A stretch of 57,381 nucleotides of DNA from Prorocentrum cordatum (lineage: Eukaryota). Made by a program: the position numbers and the translations under genes. A model generated the notes under the pieces. The model worked only from the letters and a program-made list of their open reading frames with translations, ran no database searches and had not been told where the DNA came from. This document shows, in pieces, positions 11,042 to 42,710 of this stretch. Location of the stretch: NCBI GenBank assembly GCA_963575745.1, contig CAUYUJ010000033.1:62001-119381 (forward strand), given 5' to 3'. Positions within the stretch are counted from its first letter, which is position 1; each line of letters begins with the position of its first letter.

Positions 11042-11904
11042 GCAGCGCGCTTAACAGGGTGAGGGACAGGATGACGAATGTTGTGTGCGATGCTCTCTGC
11101 TCTGGTTATCTATGCTCTCTTCTGTCTACTCTCCGATTTCCTCTCTCTGTTCTGTGCCGGGCACCTGCCTCCTCTACATCGGCTCTCTCCGGTCCACCGG
11201 CTGCTCTCTACTCTCTACTCTACACCGCCACTACACATTCTCGCTTCTCCTCTCGAGACTCTCAACTCTGTGCTCTCTGCATGCTCCACACCGCGCTTTT
11301 TGCACTCCGCGAACTGTCCCAGGCTCTGCATTCTCTACTCCCTGTCCCCTCCCTCTCTCTCTCTATAAACATTGCTGTTGTTGTTTGTGTTCCTCTCTCT
11401 CTGTGTAATGTTACTACTCTTTAGTATCGACTCTATGCTGCCTCTGCTCTACTCAACATGTACAAGCTCCTCCACCATGGCCCCCGCAACTGCGGATATA
11501 ATCAAAGGACAGTGGGGTCGTCGGCAGTCTGCGAGGCTCTGACAATTACCCTGGCGACGTACCCAACCCTTGCGCAATGCGGGGCAGAAGTACATCAGGA
11601 TTGCTACAACGGGGGCGATGACGTAACATGGACGCATGCGATTTTGCGAGCAGCAATCGGAAGGCTCGCAGGCCCCCGATCAAGATATAAGGGCTACGTA
11701 ATAACAAATCACCCCCGTTGGCTGTGCCATGCGCCCGTTGCACCCAACGTATCCCACAGCAACTCTTTAGAGCCCCCACGGGAAACGTGTAGGCGCAACG
11801 TTATGGCCATCGCCCGGCAAATTGTCTGTTCTACAACTCACCCCCGTTGGCTGTGTCATGCGCCCGTTGCGCCCAACGTATCCCGCAGCAGCTCTCCAGA
11901 GCCC

Positions 11905-13330
11905 CCCAGGGACGGCGAGGTCTCGCTCAGGTCCCCGCGGTGCCTCACTCCGCTGGACCCACCAGCAGCCCTCGAAAGTGGCGACAGCGTCGCAGATCGC
12001 AGCCCCCACAGGGACGGCGAAGTCTCGCTCAGGTCTCCGCGATGCCTCACTCCGCTGGACCCACCAGCAGCTCTCGAAAATGGCAACAGTGTCGCAGATC
12101 ACAGCCCCAACAGGGACGGCGAGGTCTCGCTCAGGTCCCCGCGGTGCCTCCGCTGGACCCACCAGCAGCCCTCGAAAGTGGCGACCGTGTCGCAGATTGC
12201 AGACCCCCCCCCCCAGGGACGGCGAGGTCTCGCTCAGGTCCCCGCGGTGCCTCACCCCGCTGGACCCACCAGCAGCTCTCGAAAGTGGAGACATTGTCGC
12301 AGATCGCAGCCCCCCAAGGACGGCGAGGTCTCGCTCAGGTCCCCGCGGTGCCTCACCCCGCTGGACACACCAGCAGCCCTCGAAAATGGCGACAATGTGG
12401 CAGATCGCAGCCCCCCAAGGACGGCGAGGTCTCGCTCAAGTCCCCGCTGTGCCTCACTCCGCAGGACACACCAGCAGCCCTCGAAAGTGGCGACCGTGTC
12501 GCAGATCGCACCCCCCCCCAGGGATGGCGAGGTCTCGCTCAGGTCCTCGCGGTGCCGCACTCCGCTGGACCCACCGGCGACAGTGTCGCAGATCGCAGCC
12601 CCCCAGGGACGGCGATGACTCGCTCAGATCCCCGCGGAGCCTCACTCCGCAGAACCCACCAGCAGCTCTCGAAAGTGGCGACCGTGTCGCAGATCGCAGC
12701 CCCCCAGGGACGGCGAGGTCTCGCTCAGGTCCCCGCGGTGCCTCACTCCGCTTGACCCACAAGCAGCCCTCGAACGTGGAAACAACGTCGCAGATCGCAG
12801 CCCCCAACGGACAGCGAGGTCTCGCCCAGGTCCCCGCGGTGCCTGACTCCGCTGGACCCACCAGCAGCCCTCGAACGTGGCGACAGCGTCGAAGATCGCA
12901 GCCCCCCAGGGACGGCGACGTTTCGCTCAGGTCCACGCGGTGCCTCACTCCGCTGGACCCACCAGCAGCTCTCGAAAGTGGAGACAACGTCGCAGATCGC
13001 AGCCCCCCCAGGGACGGCGAGGACTCGCTCAGGTCCCCGCGGTGCCTCACTCCGCAGGACCCACCAGCAGCCCTCGAAAGTGGCGACAGTGTGGCAGATC
13101 GCAGCCCCCAACGGACGGCGAGGTCTCGCCCAGGTCCCCGCGGTGCCTCACTCCGCTGGACCCACCAGCAGCCCTCGAAAGTGGCGACCGTGTCGCAGAT
13201 TGCAGACCCCACAGGGACGGCGACGTTTCGCTCAGGTCCACGCGGTGCCTCACTCCGCAGGACCCACCAGCAGCCCTCGAAAGTGGCGACAGTGTCGCAG
13301 ATCGCAGCCCCCCCAAGGATGGCGAGGTCC
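11905..13330 (+). repeat. Tandem satellite, ~101-102 bp unit, ~14 copies
   Basis: gacggcga anchor at 11911, 12013, 12115, 12218, 12319, 12420 ... 13216, 13318; internal mini-palindrome gcgac-agt-gtcgc. Confidence 0.95.
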
Positions 13331-13954
13331 GCACAGGAGACGGGAGGCGGGAGAAGGAGAGGGACGCGACCAAACTGCTGCATTCAAAACGATTATCCCG
13401 GCAAAGCAACCTAACAGCGATGTGTAGAAGCATAGCTGGAAACATTGCCTGTGGTATTCATGTAAGAGTGCTGTTGTAGAATCCTGGTGTTCTCGCAGTC
13501 GCATTCGGATTCGCAGTGGCAGTCGCAGTGGCAACATCAGCGGCAGTCGCAGTGGCACTGCCAGTAGTTGCAGTAGCAATAGCTACACTAGCAGCAGCAA
13601 CAGCAGCAGCAGCAGCAGCAGCAGCAGCAGCAGTAATAGTAACAGTAGTAGTAGCAGTAGAAGTAGTAGTGATGGTAGTAGTGGTAACAATGAAGTAGTA
13701 GTTGTAGTGTGTGGAGTGAACGAGTAGGAGTGATGGGAGCAGTGGTAGTAGCAATAGAAACACTGCTTTCGATAACGGTATATCCACATGAGATCTCTGT
13801 ATACATGCATTGAGGTCTAAACAAGACATTGCTATCAACGGATGTGATTCCAAACGAAACACTGCTATCAACGGGTTGAGCCTCAAACGACACACTTGCA
13901 TCAATGAGTGTAGCTCCAAAACAGGCACTCCCATGAATGGTTTTAGTGTGATGT

Positions 13955-40570: not shown

Positions 40571-40571
40571 A

Positions 40572-42710
40572 AATTAGCCTGACGAGGGACCCAACCATAT
40601 GCAGGTGCGAGTACCGCAATAGTGATTCATTTTTTCGGTGGCGATCCCTATGAGGCAACGAACCGTGCTAGGGGCGTGCCGACATGAGTGGCGTGGTACA
40701 CAAAGTGAACGAAAACGATTGATCTGAGTACGTAGGGAGACTGAGCGCGGGTGAATCTGCGCGCGTGCGTCTGACTGTGAATGATCTGCGTGCGAGCGAG
40801 TCTACGTGCATGAATGCGAATATGACAAAGCGTGGTGCAAATGTGTATGAATGCCAATAGTTTGACAACGACTGCCTCTGAATACTCGTGACGCTGGGCG
40901 TGGCCGCCGCAAGGAGCTTCCCCGGGACTCCCCGACGGCATCGCCCGCGCGCCGCGACGCCAATGTCGGCGCGCCCCCCCGCGAGGATCGCGCCCGCTTC
41001 CTCCCCTTCCTTTACTCCCTCTTTGCCCGCGCACTCAAAAGTCCAAGGCTGCGGGAGCAGCGCAGCGCGGAGCCCCCGCGACGCGCGCAGGTCACCCCGG
41101 AGGGGTCCCAGCGACGCGCGCGGGTCGTCCACTGCGCGGAGCGAAGAGAGCTAGCTGGCTGGCTGATAGCGGGCAAGGCTCTTGCCGCTGGGCAGAGCGA
41201 CGACGGGCGAGCGAGGCGCTGGGCGGAACGCAGCACGGAGCCCCCGCGACGCGCGCAGGTCGCCCCGGAGGAGTCCCAGCGACGCGCGCGGGTCGCCCGC
41301 TGCGCGGAGCAAAGAGAGCTAGCTGGCTGGCTGGGACCTGCGGTGGGGCTCCATATGGGGCCACGTAACGCTGTACTGGGCAAAGGAGACGCATGTGGAC
41401 TGCGCCACGGGGACCTTCGGTGGAGCTCCCTATGGGGCCACGAAACGTGTGAGGGATGTGCCGGAATGGGTGTGCGGGACGCATGCGGGCACACCCACTG
41501 AGACCTTCGGTGGAGCTCCCTATGGGGCCACGAAACGTGTGAGGGGTGGGACGACATGTGTGTGCGGGACGCATGCGGGCACACCCACTGGGACCTTCGG
41601 TGGAGCCCCCTATGGGGCCACGAAACGTGTGAGGGTGTGCCGAAATGGGTGTGCGGGACGCATGCGGGCACACCCACTGGGACCTTCGGTGGAGCTCCCT
41701 ATGGGGCCACGAAACGTGTGAGGGGTGTGCCGAAATGGGTGTGCGGGACGCATGCGGGCACACCCACTGGGACCTTCGGTGGAGCTCCCTATGGGGCCAC
41801 GAAACGTGTGAGGGGTGTGCCGAAATGGGTGTGCGGGACGCATGCGGGCACACCCACTGAGACCTTCGGTGGAGCTCCCTATGGGGCCACGAAACGTGTG
41901 AGGGGTGTGCCGAAATGGGTGTGCGGGACGCATGCGGGCACACCCACTGGGACCTTCGGTGGAGTTCCCTATGGGGCCACGAAGCGTGTGAGGGGTGTGC
42001 CGAAATGTGTGTGCGGGACGCATGCGGGCACACCACTGGGACCTTCGGTGGAGCTCCCTATGGGGCCACGAAACGTGTGAGGGGTGTGCCGAAATGGGTG
42101 TGCGGGACGCATGCGGGCACACCCACTGGGACCTTCGGTGGAGCTCCCTATGGGGCCACGAAACGTGTGAGGGGTGTGCCGAAATGGGTGTGCGGGACGC
42201 ATGCGGGCACACCCACTGGGACCTTCGGTGGAGCTCCCTATGGGGCCACGAAACGTGTGAGGGGTGTGCCGAAATGGGTGTGCGGGACGCATGCGGGCAC
42301 ACCCACTGGGACCTTCGGTGGAGCTCCCTATGGGGCCACGAAACGTATGAGGGGTGTGCCGAATGGGTGTGCGGGACGCATGCGGGCACACCCACTGGGA
42401 CCTTCGGTGGAGCTCCCTATGGGGCCACGAAACGTGTGAGGGGTGTGCCGAAATGAGTGTGCGGGACGCATGCGGGCACACGCACTGGGACCTTCGGTGG
42501 AGCTCCCTATGGGGTCACGAAACGTGTGAGGGGTGTGCCGACATGGGTGGTGATAATGATGATGACGACAGATGATGATGACGATGACGATGATGGGGAT
42601 GATGACGATGATGATGAAGATGGGAGGAGGGAGGGGGCAGCGGGAAGGAAGGAACGCGGGGCGACGTCTCTTCAAAACGAGGACCCAACACCACAGGATG
42701 GTTGGGAAAA
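40572..42710 (-). mobile_element. Element E: intact D-family non-autonomous element carrying a homogeneous 90-bp satellite
   Basis: Left end aattagcctgacgagggacccaacca; right end ttcaaaacgaggacccaacaccacaggatggttgggaa; IR cccaacca (40590-40597) / tggttggg (42699-42706); terminal hairpin; (GTA)n on both sides. Confidence 0.75.
41350..42545 (+). repeat. Tandem satellite, 90-bp unit, ~13 near-identical copies
   Basis: gaccttcggtggag anchors at 41412, 41502, 41592, 41681 ... 42489. Confidence 0.97.

Follow-up and report, generated by a model that had tools for sequence, protein, structure and literature searches.

Described elements of similar organization

How short satellite arrays scatter through genomes is still an open question. 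Links between their dispersal and elements of the Helentron type come chiefly from insects, mites and bivalves, and HINEs, including DINE-1, are the non-autonomous partners of Helentrons. Other element classes differ in their ends: canonical Helitron1 elements have a 5' TC, a 3' CTRR and a palindrome of 16–20 nt about 11 bp from the 3' end, and insert between A and T; MITEs of the terminal-inverted-repeat type carry inverted repeats at their very ends and produce a target-site duplication of fixed length. Large internal satellites are unusual for SINEs.

In the parts of the published descriptions used here, HINEs and DINE-1 have subterminal inverted repeats of 12–15 bp, located 2–4 nt from the 5' end and 38–60 bp from the 3' end, and T strings at both boundaries, and they insert at TT with no target-site duplication (PMC4067079). 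A short inverted repeat 3–22 bp from the 5' arm gives rise to a 5' hairpin in the DINE-1 type, while HINEs have a 5–10 bp palindrome downstream of the 3' arm, 8–35 bp from the 3' end (PMC4067079). Helitron2 is described as having asymmetric terminal inverted repeats of 8–15 bp, the 5' arm giving a 5' hairpin and the 3' arm lying about 20–30 bp from the 3' end (PMC3627910). The Cg_HINE elements of the Pacific oyster carry satellite-like arrays (PMC7492417).

Here we analyzed a 57,381-nt stretch of DNA (the window) from a GC-rich eukaryote, together with five metagenome contigs, presumed marine, that contain family ends in DNA of its relatives (L005, L038, L063, L070 and L094). Of four satellite arrays flagged in the window, two, and probably a third, are enclosed in copies of a single short mobile element of very high abundance. 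Fixed ends combined with an exchangeable satellite filling have been described in insects and oysters; here they are encountered in a GC-rich marine microbe.

Family membership

The preliminary description had reported four arrays, in elements D, F, J and E, with periods of 102, 90, 63 and 90 bp, enclosed by left ends that resemble each other. All four arrays are present, with periods of 101, 90, 64 and 90 bp and mutually unrelated monomers. The left ends were compared by searching 24-nt queries against the whole window, with 300 shuffled queries as a control, and by nhmmer profiles of the left (L) and right (R) modules that were built without window copies, the L profile from three metagenome copies only.

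At their left ends, D (from 11544) and E (from 40572) agree at 20 of 24 positions, while none of the 300 shuffled queries gave any 20/24 match in the window. The metagenome-only L profile has window matches that start exactly at 11544 (E-value 1.3e-4) and 40572 (E-value 3.5e-3), and no other window match below an E-value of 5; a contig from another run also begins to match E exactly at 40572. Judged from these alignments, the left ends of D and E are true homologues and belong to one repeat family. The left end of F matches those of D and E at 18 of 24 positions each. D, E and F are the sole window matches of at least 18/24 (0.047 expected by chance per window), and F is probably a diverged member of the family, with no significant profile match at its left end (best E-value 12). 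For the left end claimed for J (30483–30504, plus strand, with the 64-bp satellite at 30824–31133; in all 30483–31133), there was neither a window match of at least 17/24 nor a profile match. By the same comparisons, J, which had been taken for the weakest member, is outside the family, so that the proposed likeness of four left ends holds for D and E, probably for F, and not for J.

The idea of one terminal design with different satellite cargo was borne out, since D and E share L and have unrelated monomers, and the metagenome copies vary in their filling. D, E and an old relic, E' (270–509), are copies of one high-copy non-coding interspersed family.

Copies in the window

All features described below are on the plus strand. 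The left module of E (40572–40617) is delimited by the metagenome profile match (40572–40600), by read depth and by contig edges, one contig beginning to match at 40572 and two diverging after 40617. Just inside it is a relic of E's own 90-bp monomer (40634–40691, 83% identity to 42493–42550), followed by a GC-rich interior identified as low-copy by its low read depth (40692–41404), in which self-comparison revealed an internal duplication (approximately 41046–41200 and 41214–41370). The 90-bp satellite comprises 12.8 copies (41405–42549; TRF, 96% matches), and its monomer is related to the satellite monomers in L063 and L005. After (TGA)n and a purine-rich tract of the (GGA) type (42551–42652) comes the right module (42653–42714; metagenome-only profile, E-value 5.6e-18), consisting of a conserved 5' half, a hairpin with stem arms at 42684–42689 and 42701–42706, an A-run (42707–42713) and then C. 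The R profile built from metagenome copies only has window matches at 42654–42711 and 451–497. The latter belongs to E', an old diverged E-type copy (270–509) with R at 450–509 (profile E-value 4e-10) and 1.4 monomers (270–397) of about 68% identity to E; no left module was detected in E'.

In D, the left module (11544–11590; profile match 11544–11588) is followed by a left arm (11591–11899) with an 80-nt segment occurring twice (11704–11783 and 11833–11912, 88.75% identity), by 14 copies of a 101-bp satellite unrelated to the E and F monomers (11900–13337), and by a purine-rich tract with a truncated R that has no hairpin (13338–13392) and ends in the family 10-mer (13383–13392). The right-module profile match of D is not significant on its own (E-value 0.87–1.9). 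F consists of a probable diverged L (23682–23705), 15 copies of a 90-bp satellite (23811–25140), (GCTGT)n at 25142–25302 and a possible diverged R (25340–25376), in which the 9-mer at 25350–25358 repeats the left-end variant of F in direct orientation; this right module is only suggestive because the R profiles give no match there.

A further module, X, is present in two copies (13393–13535 and 15177–15319), the first having 84% identity over 144 nt to 15176–15319. Copy 1 starts with an L-like sequence and adjoins D exactly at the expected start of the hairpin; the likeness to L is weak (17/24 for copy 2; profile E-values 8–20). Copy 2 adjoins the right flank of a 73-bp satellite element, G1, at the place where the G1 hairpin is expected, and in a second such element, G2, the same right flank runs into a hairpin. 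This right-end hairpin with a family-type A-run (19732–19761; profile E-value 0.047–0.096, borderline) lies downstream of a 73-bp satellite (19293–19589). The right modules of D and G1 are both cut off just short of the hairpin, with the first base of module X following directly.

The satellites of the window do not always sit between family ends: the L and R profile searches detected none at the arrays of J, K and G1 or at an 83-bp array, and the elements are therefore not the sole source of satellites here.

Abundance and boundaries

Raw reads from a related organism cover L at a depth of about 1500–1850 per direction and R at about 1730, while the interior of E receives 0.3–43 per direction, its unique part being covered about 1-fold. 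At the left end of E, the depth of about 1500 per direction at 40582 and 40586 drops to about 225 by 40621 and to about 20 by 40669. At 40582 and 40586, the letter found in most reads is not that of E but that of the metagenome copies. The element ends are thus far more abundant than any one interior, and the equal depth of L and R means that neither end is in excess. In two other runs, many contigs match only 42650–42711 (the 60-nt R), have differing flanks and diverge after 42708–42711. Copies number in the hundreds to thousands, and the boundaries, at 40572 and 42708–42711, are sharp.

Among the metagenome contigs, L038 contains a complete 120-nt copy with both ends and no satellite, and L063 a complete copy with a 98-bp satellite related to that of E. 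R follows E-like satellites in L005 and L063, and is preceded by a different repeat, of a 15-bp type, in L094 and by a microsatellite alone in L070.

Architecture of the basic element

The basic element has about 120 nt, L contributing about 46 nt and R about 60 nt. Low-copy sequence, a subfamily-specific satellite array and, just before R, a purine-rich microsatellite form a variable filling between them; the purine-rich tract was found upstream of R in E, E', D, L005, L094, L070 and L063. R holds a conserved hairpin, with 6 bp in the stem and about 10 nt in the loop, and then a short run of 2–7 A, mostly followed by C. The stem is invariant in 7/7 aligned copies (6/7 for the last pair), with compensatory changes at 0/6 pairs. 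Folding of the 120-nt element is not more stable than that of shuffled sequences (z of -0.1 for DNA and -0.5 for RNA). A 6-bp palindrome on the inner side of the L arm is perfect in L038 only, and the 17 nt between this arm and the element end form no stable stem.

L and R have in common a direct repeat of 12–13 nt, seen in E (13 nt versus 12 nt, with one indel), in L038 and, as a variant of its own, in F. Read on the minus strand, one boundary has 2–7 T in 8/8 right ends and the other TT in 7/8 left ends; GT starts 9/12 right ends, and the opposite end of the element is a pyrimidine tract plus CAG. Neither end is an inverted copy of the other, and there are no terminal inverted repeats at the very ends. 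Target-site duplications were seen in none of the three complete copies (E, L038 and L063a), a comparison of occupied sites in which E sits inside a microsatellite.

An inverted repeat of 8–9 bp pairing the left and right ends, co-varying between elements, had been proposed for each of D, F, J and E. The best exact left/right inverted repeats have 7 bp in D and F and 9 bp in J and E. At 1000 random places in the window, repeats of at least 8 bp occur in 75% and of at least 9 bp in 38.5%, so that within the window the pairing is no better than chance; the supposed co-variation in F is actually a direct repeat, a 9-mer at 23697 found again at 25350. Only the 9-bp pair of E (40590–40598 with 42698–42706), part of the conserved right-end hairpin, carries meaning, since the complete copy of L038 shows this pairing too. 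The single position at which the inverted matches of E and L038 differ is changed on both arms, while in L063a only 7/9 positions match. The arms lie 5–8 nt from one element end and 17–25 nt from the other.

Comparison with Helitron-like elements

In the features given in the parts of the sources used here, the family resembles DINE-1 and HINEs in being non-coding, in its very high copy number, in the absence of inverted repeats at the very ends, in a second arm placed tens of bases inward of the opposite end, and in the microsatellite and central tandem repeats of many copies (PMC4067079). The minus-strand T strings, whose number varies at the boundaries, and the lack of target-site duplications in three complete copies would also agree with DINE-1 and HINEs (PMC4067079). 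A 5' hairpin as in the DINE-1 type is also present, with its 6-bp stem and loop of about 10 nt (PMC4067079). The position of the arms is roughly right, but their length (7–9 bp) and the distance of the second arm from the end (17–25 nt) are outside the ranges published for HINE/DINE-1, and the palindrome, which is weakly conserved, is found inward of the arm, unlike that of HINEs (PMC4067079). The family also differs in its extra L/R direct repeat and in its host, a GC-rich microbe and not an animal (PMC4067079).

As far as the Cg_HINE description used here extends, in both families flanks of a single design enclose different families of tandem repeats. Both also have a terminal module, conserved over about 60 bp, a microsatellite on the inner edge of one flank, a variable spacer and tandem repeats in constant orientation to the flanks, and they lack target-site duplications, as far as the three complete copies of our family show (PMC7492417). 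They differ in that the order of spacer and array is swapped (microsatellite, array and spacer from the hairpin end in our family), in unrelated sequence and in the position of the palindrome; the T-rich target of Cg_HINE is only putative for the window family (PMC7492417).

Compared with the Helitron2 features in the source sections used, the family has a 9-bp inverted repeat in 2/3 complete copies, a 5' hairpin in 7/7 and the 3' arm at 17–25 nt, but no 3' hairpin directly downstream of the 3' arm, and the 5' arm is 5–8 nt, not 0–2 nt, from the end if the T string is counted as part of the element (PMC3627910). Helitron-1N1_CRe of Chlamydomonas is similar in its short asymmetric inverted repeats, a 5' end beginning with T and the existence of 5'-truncated copies, and probably in inserting beside a T run without duplication (PMC3627910).

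Two classes did not fit. Against canonical Helitron1, on the minus strand CTAA ends only 3/8 left modules (E, L038 and L063a), and about 21 nt separate the palindrome from the end; on the plus strand, hairpin, A-run and CT[AG][AG] are found in 4/8 copies, with T next in 2/4, and the 5' end is not TC. MITEs were rejected, since the ends do not mirror each other as inverted copies and duplications were not seen.

Possible mode of transposition

The explanation that we favour, tentatively, is that these are non-autonomous elements whose movement depends on a transposase supplied in trans, a rolling-circle HUH Rep/helicase of the Helitron2/Helentron type. The functional strand would be the minus strand of the window. 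It would begin with the T string and a 5' hairpin made of the near-terminal inverted-repeat arm and its neighbour (a hairpin formed by this arm is indeed observed), continue through the microsatellite, the central tandem repeats and the variable stretch, and reach the second arm, which would pair with the first, 17–25 nt before a 3' end finishing in TT. Replication slippage, unequal exchange or capture may create satellite arrays within the element; new insertions would spread these arrays, which may later outgrow the element. The earlier comparison with DINE-1/HINE-like elements fits the layout (hairpin, microsatellite, tandem repeats and no duplication seen); two defining structural features of HINE/Helitron2 are lacking in the family. 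Among the 107 window ORFs scanned there were no matches to Rep or helicase families, and no Helentron or RepHel partner was identified there.

Should a Rep/helicase partner share these ends, rolling-circle elements that seed satellites would reach a distant protist lineage, and part of the very high, largely unclassified repeat content of the host would be explained; without such a partner, the family becomes a candidate for a new mode of transposition. In both cases, the profiles of L and R provide a direct handle for annotating these repeats.

The main rival, which we consider unlikely, is that the copies are SINE-like retroposons of the plus strand, with L as the 5' head and R as a 3' stem-loop plus A-rich tail recognized by a LINE reverse transcriptase; a LINE such as that at 52055–56927 would be an example partner, and copies would be made by target-primed reverse transcription. 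Like SINEs, the elements are short, non-coding and abundant and end in a conserved hairpin and an A-run of variable length (2–7 A); a LINE in the window has both an AP-endonuclease domain and an ORF resembling reverse transcriptase, E' has R and no detectable L, as expected for a 5'-truncated copy, and long (GTA)n tracts follow several window elements on the same strand. However, target-site duplications are seen in 0/3 complete copies, the equal read depth of L and R argues against general 5' truncation and shows no 3'-end excess, and the A-run is short with C usually next. Nor is there a polymerase III head of the tRNA, 7SL or 5S type: ARAGORN found no tRNA at any element, and Rfam gave nothing at gathering score in the window and nothing up to an E-value of 1 in the five metagenome loci. 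The 3' region of the LINE (49700–52100) has no R-profile match.

Less probable still is an undescribed hairpin-ended mobile element that uses a tyrosine recombinase or another single-strand transposase, with the L/R direct repeat as its cleavage or exchange sites. The direct repeat in E, L038 and, as its own variant, F is in line with it, as are the two lacking HINE/Helitron2 features and the joints of D and G1 to the first base of module X, which look site-specific; but the copies are few, only F has the variant repeat, the joints could result from ordinary deletion or from nested insertion, and no candidate enzyme was found among the 107 window ORFs. We give similarly little weight to a new hairpin-ended single-strand element, HUH-type or other, peculiar to this group of GC-rich marine protists. 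In that case the 12–13-nt direct repeat would be the recognition or cleavage site of the enzyme at start and stop, the joints of D and G1 to module X would be footprints of stop-to-start joining, and repeated re-initiation inside the element would turn the interior into satellites. Given the GT start and the pyrimidine tract plus CAG end on the minus strand, elements landing in genes could also act as introner-like elements, which is less likely than such a new element.

Finally, it is very improbable that L and R are not mobile and represent dispersed low-complexity or recombination-prone pieces beside satellites, spread by segmental duplication, as might be suggested by the single orientation of all window copies in a region of satellites alternating with (GTA)n and by the several satellites without family ends, because read depth in the hundreds to thousands is combined with sharp boundaries and many different flanks, L005 contains copies in opposite orientation, and the compact 120-nt copy of L038 is located 72 nt behind an ordinary gene.

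Terminal modules and their copies

The preliminary description had proposed a family of four elements, D, F, J and E (left ends at 11544, 23682, 30483 and 40572), with similar ends around unrelated satellites. All four arrays are present, with periods of 101, 90, 64 and 90 bp, and the interiors are indeed unrelated: in local alignments, all pairs of monomers from D, E, F, J, K (a 54/108-bp satellite), G (a 73-bp satellite) and an 83-bp array scored within the range of 50 shuffles. The resemblance of the left ends stands for D and E, which agree at 20/24 positions, a score reached by 0/300 shuffled queries, and is probable for F (18/24 to D and 18/24 to E). 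These three are the only matches of at least 18/24 on both strands of the whole window, in which shuffled left-end queries gave 0.047 matches of at least 18 per window. The left end of J finds nothing at or above 17/24 anywhere in the window and has no profile match, which places this element, previously seen as the weakest member, outside the family.

A scan of metagenomes with a 17-nt right-end motif yielded at least 119 loci; among the matches listed, 114 were due to chance and five were true relatives (G+C 0.58-0.66), two of them with complete copies. The copy in contig L038, about 120 nt long, consists of the left module, a 6-bp palindrome, about 45 nt and the right module with its hairpin and A-run, and contains no satellite. 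It starts 72 nt beyond the stop codon of an intact 304-aa ORF, and reading it as an intron was rejected because the coding sequence is uninterrupted. Contig L063 carries a left module, a spacer, seven 98-bp monomers related to those of E, (GGA)n and (CAG)n, and a right module (copy L063a); 45 nt after this complete element, a second left module is followed by the same satellite. In the remaining three contigs, the right module is preceded by E-like monomers and a purine tract (L005, which also contains a weak inverted right-module relic), by a different short GC-rich repeat and a purine tract (L094), or by (GGAGAA)n alone (L070). Viral contigs gave 0 matches to the right-end pattern and 0 to the left-end pattern; the seven loci found there with the hairpin pattern are unrelated phage DNA, six of them identical in sequence, with no upstream likeness.

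Profiles built only from the metagenome copies recognized in the window the left modules of D and E at their exact starts (11544, E 1.3e-4; 40572, E 3.5e-3), the right module of E (42654-42711, E 5.6e-18) and that of E', an old E-type relic at 270-509 (451-497, E 4e-10). The hairpin of G2, a 73-bp-satellite element, was borderline (19734-19758, E 0.047-0.096), while the right half of D (E 0.87-1.9), the left end of F (E 12) and module X (E 8-20) were non-significant, and J and the right side of F were unmatched.

On the plus strand, a consensus copy comprises the left module of about 46 nt, a variable low-copy stretch, the satellite array, microsatellites of which a purine-rich tract comes last, and the right module (about 60 nt), in which the hairpin takes up the last 30 nt. 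The 6-bp stem is invariant in 7/7 copies, compensatory changes being absent, and the hairpin is followed by 2-7 A and then usually by C (9/12 right ends, contig consensus ends included). The three complete copies (E, L038 and L063a) show no target-site duplication. The window copies D, X (twice), G2, F, E and E' share one orientation. Whether treated as DNA or as RNA, the 120-nt element folded no more stably than its shuffles. Rfam gave no match at the elements, its sole matches being to microRNA models in low-complexity sequence of the (TATACA) type in L063.

D and G1, another 73-bp-satellite element, have no hairpin, and at exactly that point both run into the first bases of module X. This 144-nt module occurs twice (13393-13535 and 15177-15319, 84% identical to each other), and its start bears a weak likeness to the left module. 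The 73-bp satellite occurs at 14796-15182, 16518-16617 and 19293-19737; two of its copies are followed by a common right flank (about 95 nt, 88.5% identical), which runs into module X in G1 and into a family-type hairpin in G2.

Abundance and boundaries of the end pieces

Read mapping covered E (40480-42800) and used one raw-read run and three contig sets, which represent three organisms, each containing about a quarter of the sampled words of 20000-28600. The depth per direction was about 1500 in the left module (40582/40586), fell to about 225 at 40621, about 20 at 40669 and 0.3-1.5 at 40714-40869, was 3-43 at 40870-41337 and 200-4800 in the E array, and reached about 1730 in the right module (42664-42741). 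This profile indicates that each end piece is present in hundreds to thousands of copies, that the two are equally abundant and that both far exceed the interior of E itself. At 40582 (A>G, 81%) and 40586 (G>A, 93%), most reads carry a letter other than that of E, and it is the one found in the metagenome copies. Contigs of two other runs matched 42650-42711 alone, with 0-7 differences, and had differing flanks beyond 42708-42711; one contig contains two right modules 222 nt apart. At the left boundary of E, the match of one contig starts exactly at 40572 and two contigs depart after 40617.

Repeats shared between the ends

Each element had been thought to carry an 8-9 bp inverted repeat pairing its left and right ends. 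When the first 45 nt of each element were compared with the next 4 kb, the best exact inverted repeat was 7 bp in D and F and 9 bp in J and E, and of 1000 random places in the window 75% had at least 8 bp and 38.5% at least 9 bp. As the repeats are this short and equals this frequent at random places, the pairing fails as a statistical argument. The left and right ends are not mutually inverted. The left module and the first arm of the hairpin carry an identical 7-nt word, so that the left module can pair with the second arm; the resulting inverted match is 9 bp in E and L038, with the single differing position changed on both sides, and 7/9 in L063a. Direct repeats were found as well, a 9-mer common to both sides of F (23697 and 25350) and one of 13 nt on the left versus 12 nt on the right in E, besides its 9-bp inverted pair.

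Relation of the satellites to the ends

The central claim, one terminal design with different satellite cargo, is real: what lies between the same ends may be one of the unrelated arrays, just a microsatellite, or nothing at all. Just inside the left module of E lies a lone degenerate monomer (40634-40691) that shares 83% identity with the final one of the array. Given this monomer and the varied filling between the same ends, the arrays look like secondary growths or captures within an element able to spread them. The satellites do not always sit between such ends, since in the window no family ends are detectable at J, K, G1 and the 83-bp array. The 83-bp satellite (48109-48693, with a diverged relic at 10767-10987, 37 kb away) contains in its monomer two 10-mers also present in the right module of the family (weak profile match, E 0.31), a hint that element ends may have given rise to some of the satellites.

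Possible mechanisms of spread

Of the single explanations, we tentatively favour a rolling-circle mechanism of HINE-like kind, a plausible candidate. The layout was compared with the descriptions in Thomas et al. 2014 (PMC4067079), the oyster Cg_HINE paper (PMC7492417) and Bao and Jurka 2013 (PMC3627910). In minus-strand direction, the family bears a T-string of variable number at its 5' boundary; a near-terminal repeat arm and its neighbour about 10 nt away form a 5' hairpin; a microsatellite, central tandem repeats and a spacer follow in this order; and a second arm, which can pair with the first, lies 17-25 nt from a 3' end finishing in TT. Neither terminal inverted repeats nor duplications are seen. 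Such a layout resembles the hallmarks that these papers give for Helitron2, Helentron, DINE-1 and HINE. The family departs from HINE and Helitron2 in two respects: its arms are short (7-9 bp), and no palindrome separates the 3' arm from the 3' end as would be expected, the palindrome of the family being on the inner side of the 3' arm and perfect in one copy only. Canonical Helitron ends (TC...CTRR, hairpin 11 bp from the end) occur on neither strand of the family, and no Rep/helicase gene was found among the 107 window ORFs scanned. The literature searched describes satellite-carrying elements of such design in insects, mites and bivalves and Helitron2 in green algae and other organisms; it yielded no account of such elements in haptophytes or similar GC-rich protists.

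The equal depth at both ends, which fits a DNA element, also speaks against a SINE-like retroposon. A 3' hairpin plus A-run, the presence of a LINE in the window and the relic E' with its missing left module lend some support to retroposition; however, duplications are unseen, likeness to tRNA, 7SL or 5S is lacking and the 3' region of the LINE is unlike the right module, and we consider this origin unlikely. Quite unlikely, in our view, is a so far undescribed hairpin-ended element that would be cleaved at the direct repeat common to the left and right modules. An LTR- or TRIM-like reading with a primer-binding site and polypurine tract was rejected, as the would-be primer-site TGG is, judged by eye, unconserved (TGA in E) and C61, invariant in tRNAs, is missing from the tRNA 3' end that this reading implies.

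Genomic setting and neighbouring repeats

The window is eukaryotic, with a G+C content of about 58% and an extremely high content of simple repeats and satellites. The G+C content, the seemingly marine names of the contigs and arrays of 10-11-nt repeats might tentatively point to a haptophyte. From 11.5 to 44 kb, satellite arrays alternate with five long (GTA)n tracts on one strand (13956-14382, 28604-30050, 33732-35475, 37715-40560 and 42742-43976), and E sits within such a tract. In the raw reads, (GTA)n has about 25000-fold depth per direction, about 14x that of the element ends.

The only clear coding features are the LINE and a small DDE_3 transposase fragment. The LINE (52055-56927, continuing to about 50830, minus strand) has an AP-endonuclease domain, an 805-aa reverse-transcriptase-like ORF and more open frames downstream; this ORF has no Pfam match, and RVT_1 is present in the nearest Atlas clusters. 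The ORF at 36290-36994 (plus strand) has a short match to DDE_3 (Tc1/mariner or IS630-type transposase) just below the Pfam cut-off (E 4.6e-6). It stands directly upstream of satellite K (36945-37486), which may be part of a different transposon. A tRNA-Thr (TGT) of 96 nt, called by ARAGORN at 44510-44605 (plus strand), is long for a tRNA and either contains an intron or is a false call in a repeat-rich stretch.

Within D, an inverted 24-mer of the left arm at 11800-11823 (minus strand) matches the left-end motif at 17-18/24 positions and could be due to chance or be a relic of another copy. Directly left of D, a 29-nt sequence (11514-11542, plus strand) reappears inverted where the J region ends on the right (31361-31389, minus strand; 27/29, E 1e-5 to 1e-3). 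D may here adjoin the end of a further repeat family. Arrays of 10-11-nt units of the CCAAGAGGGCC type are found at 3100-3600, 16743-18060 and 33100-33400 of the window and at 1040-1130 of L070.
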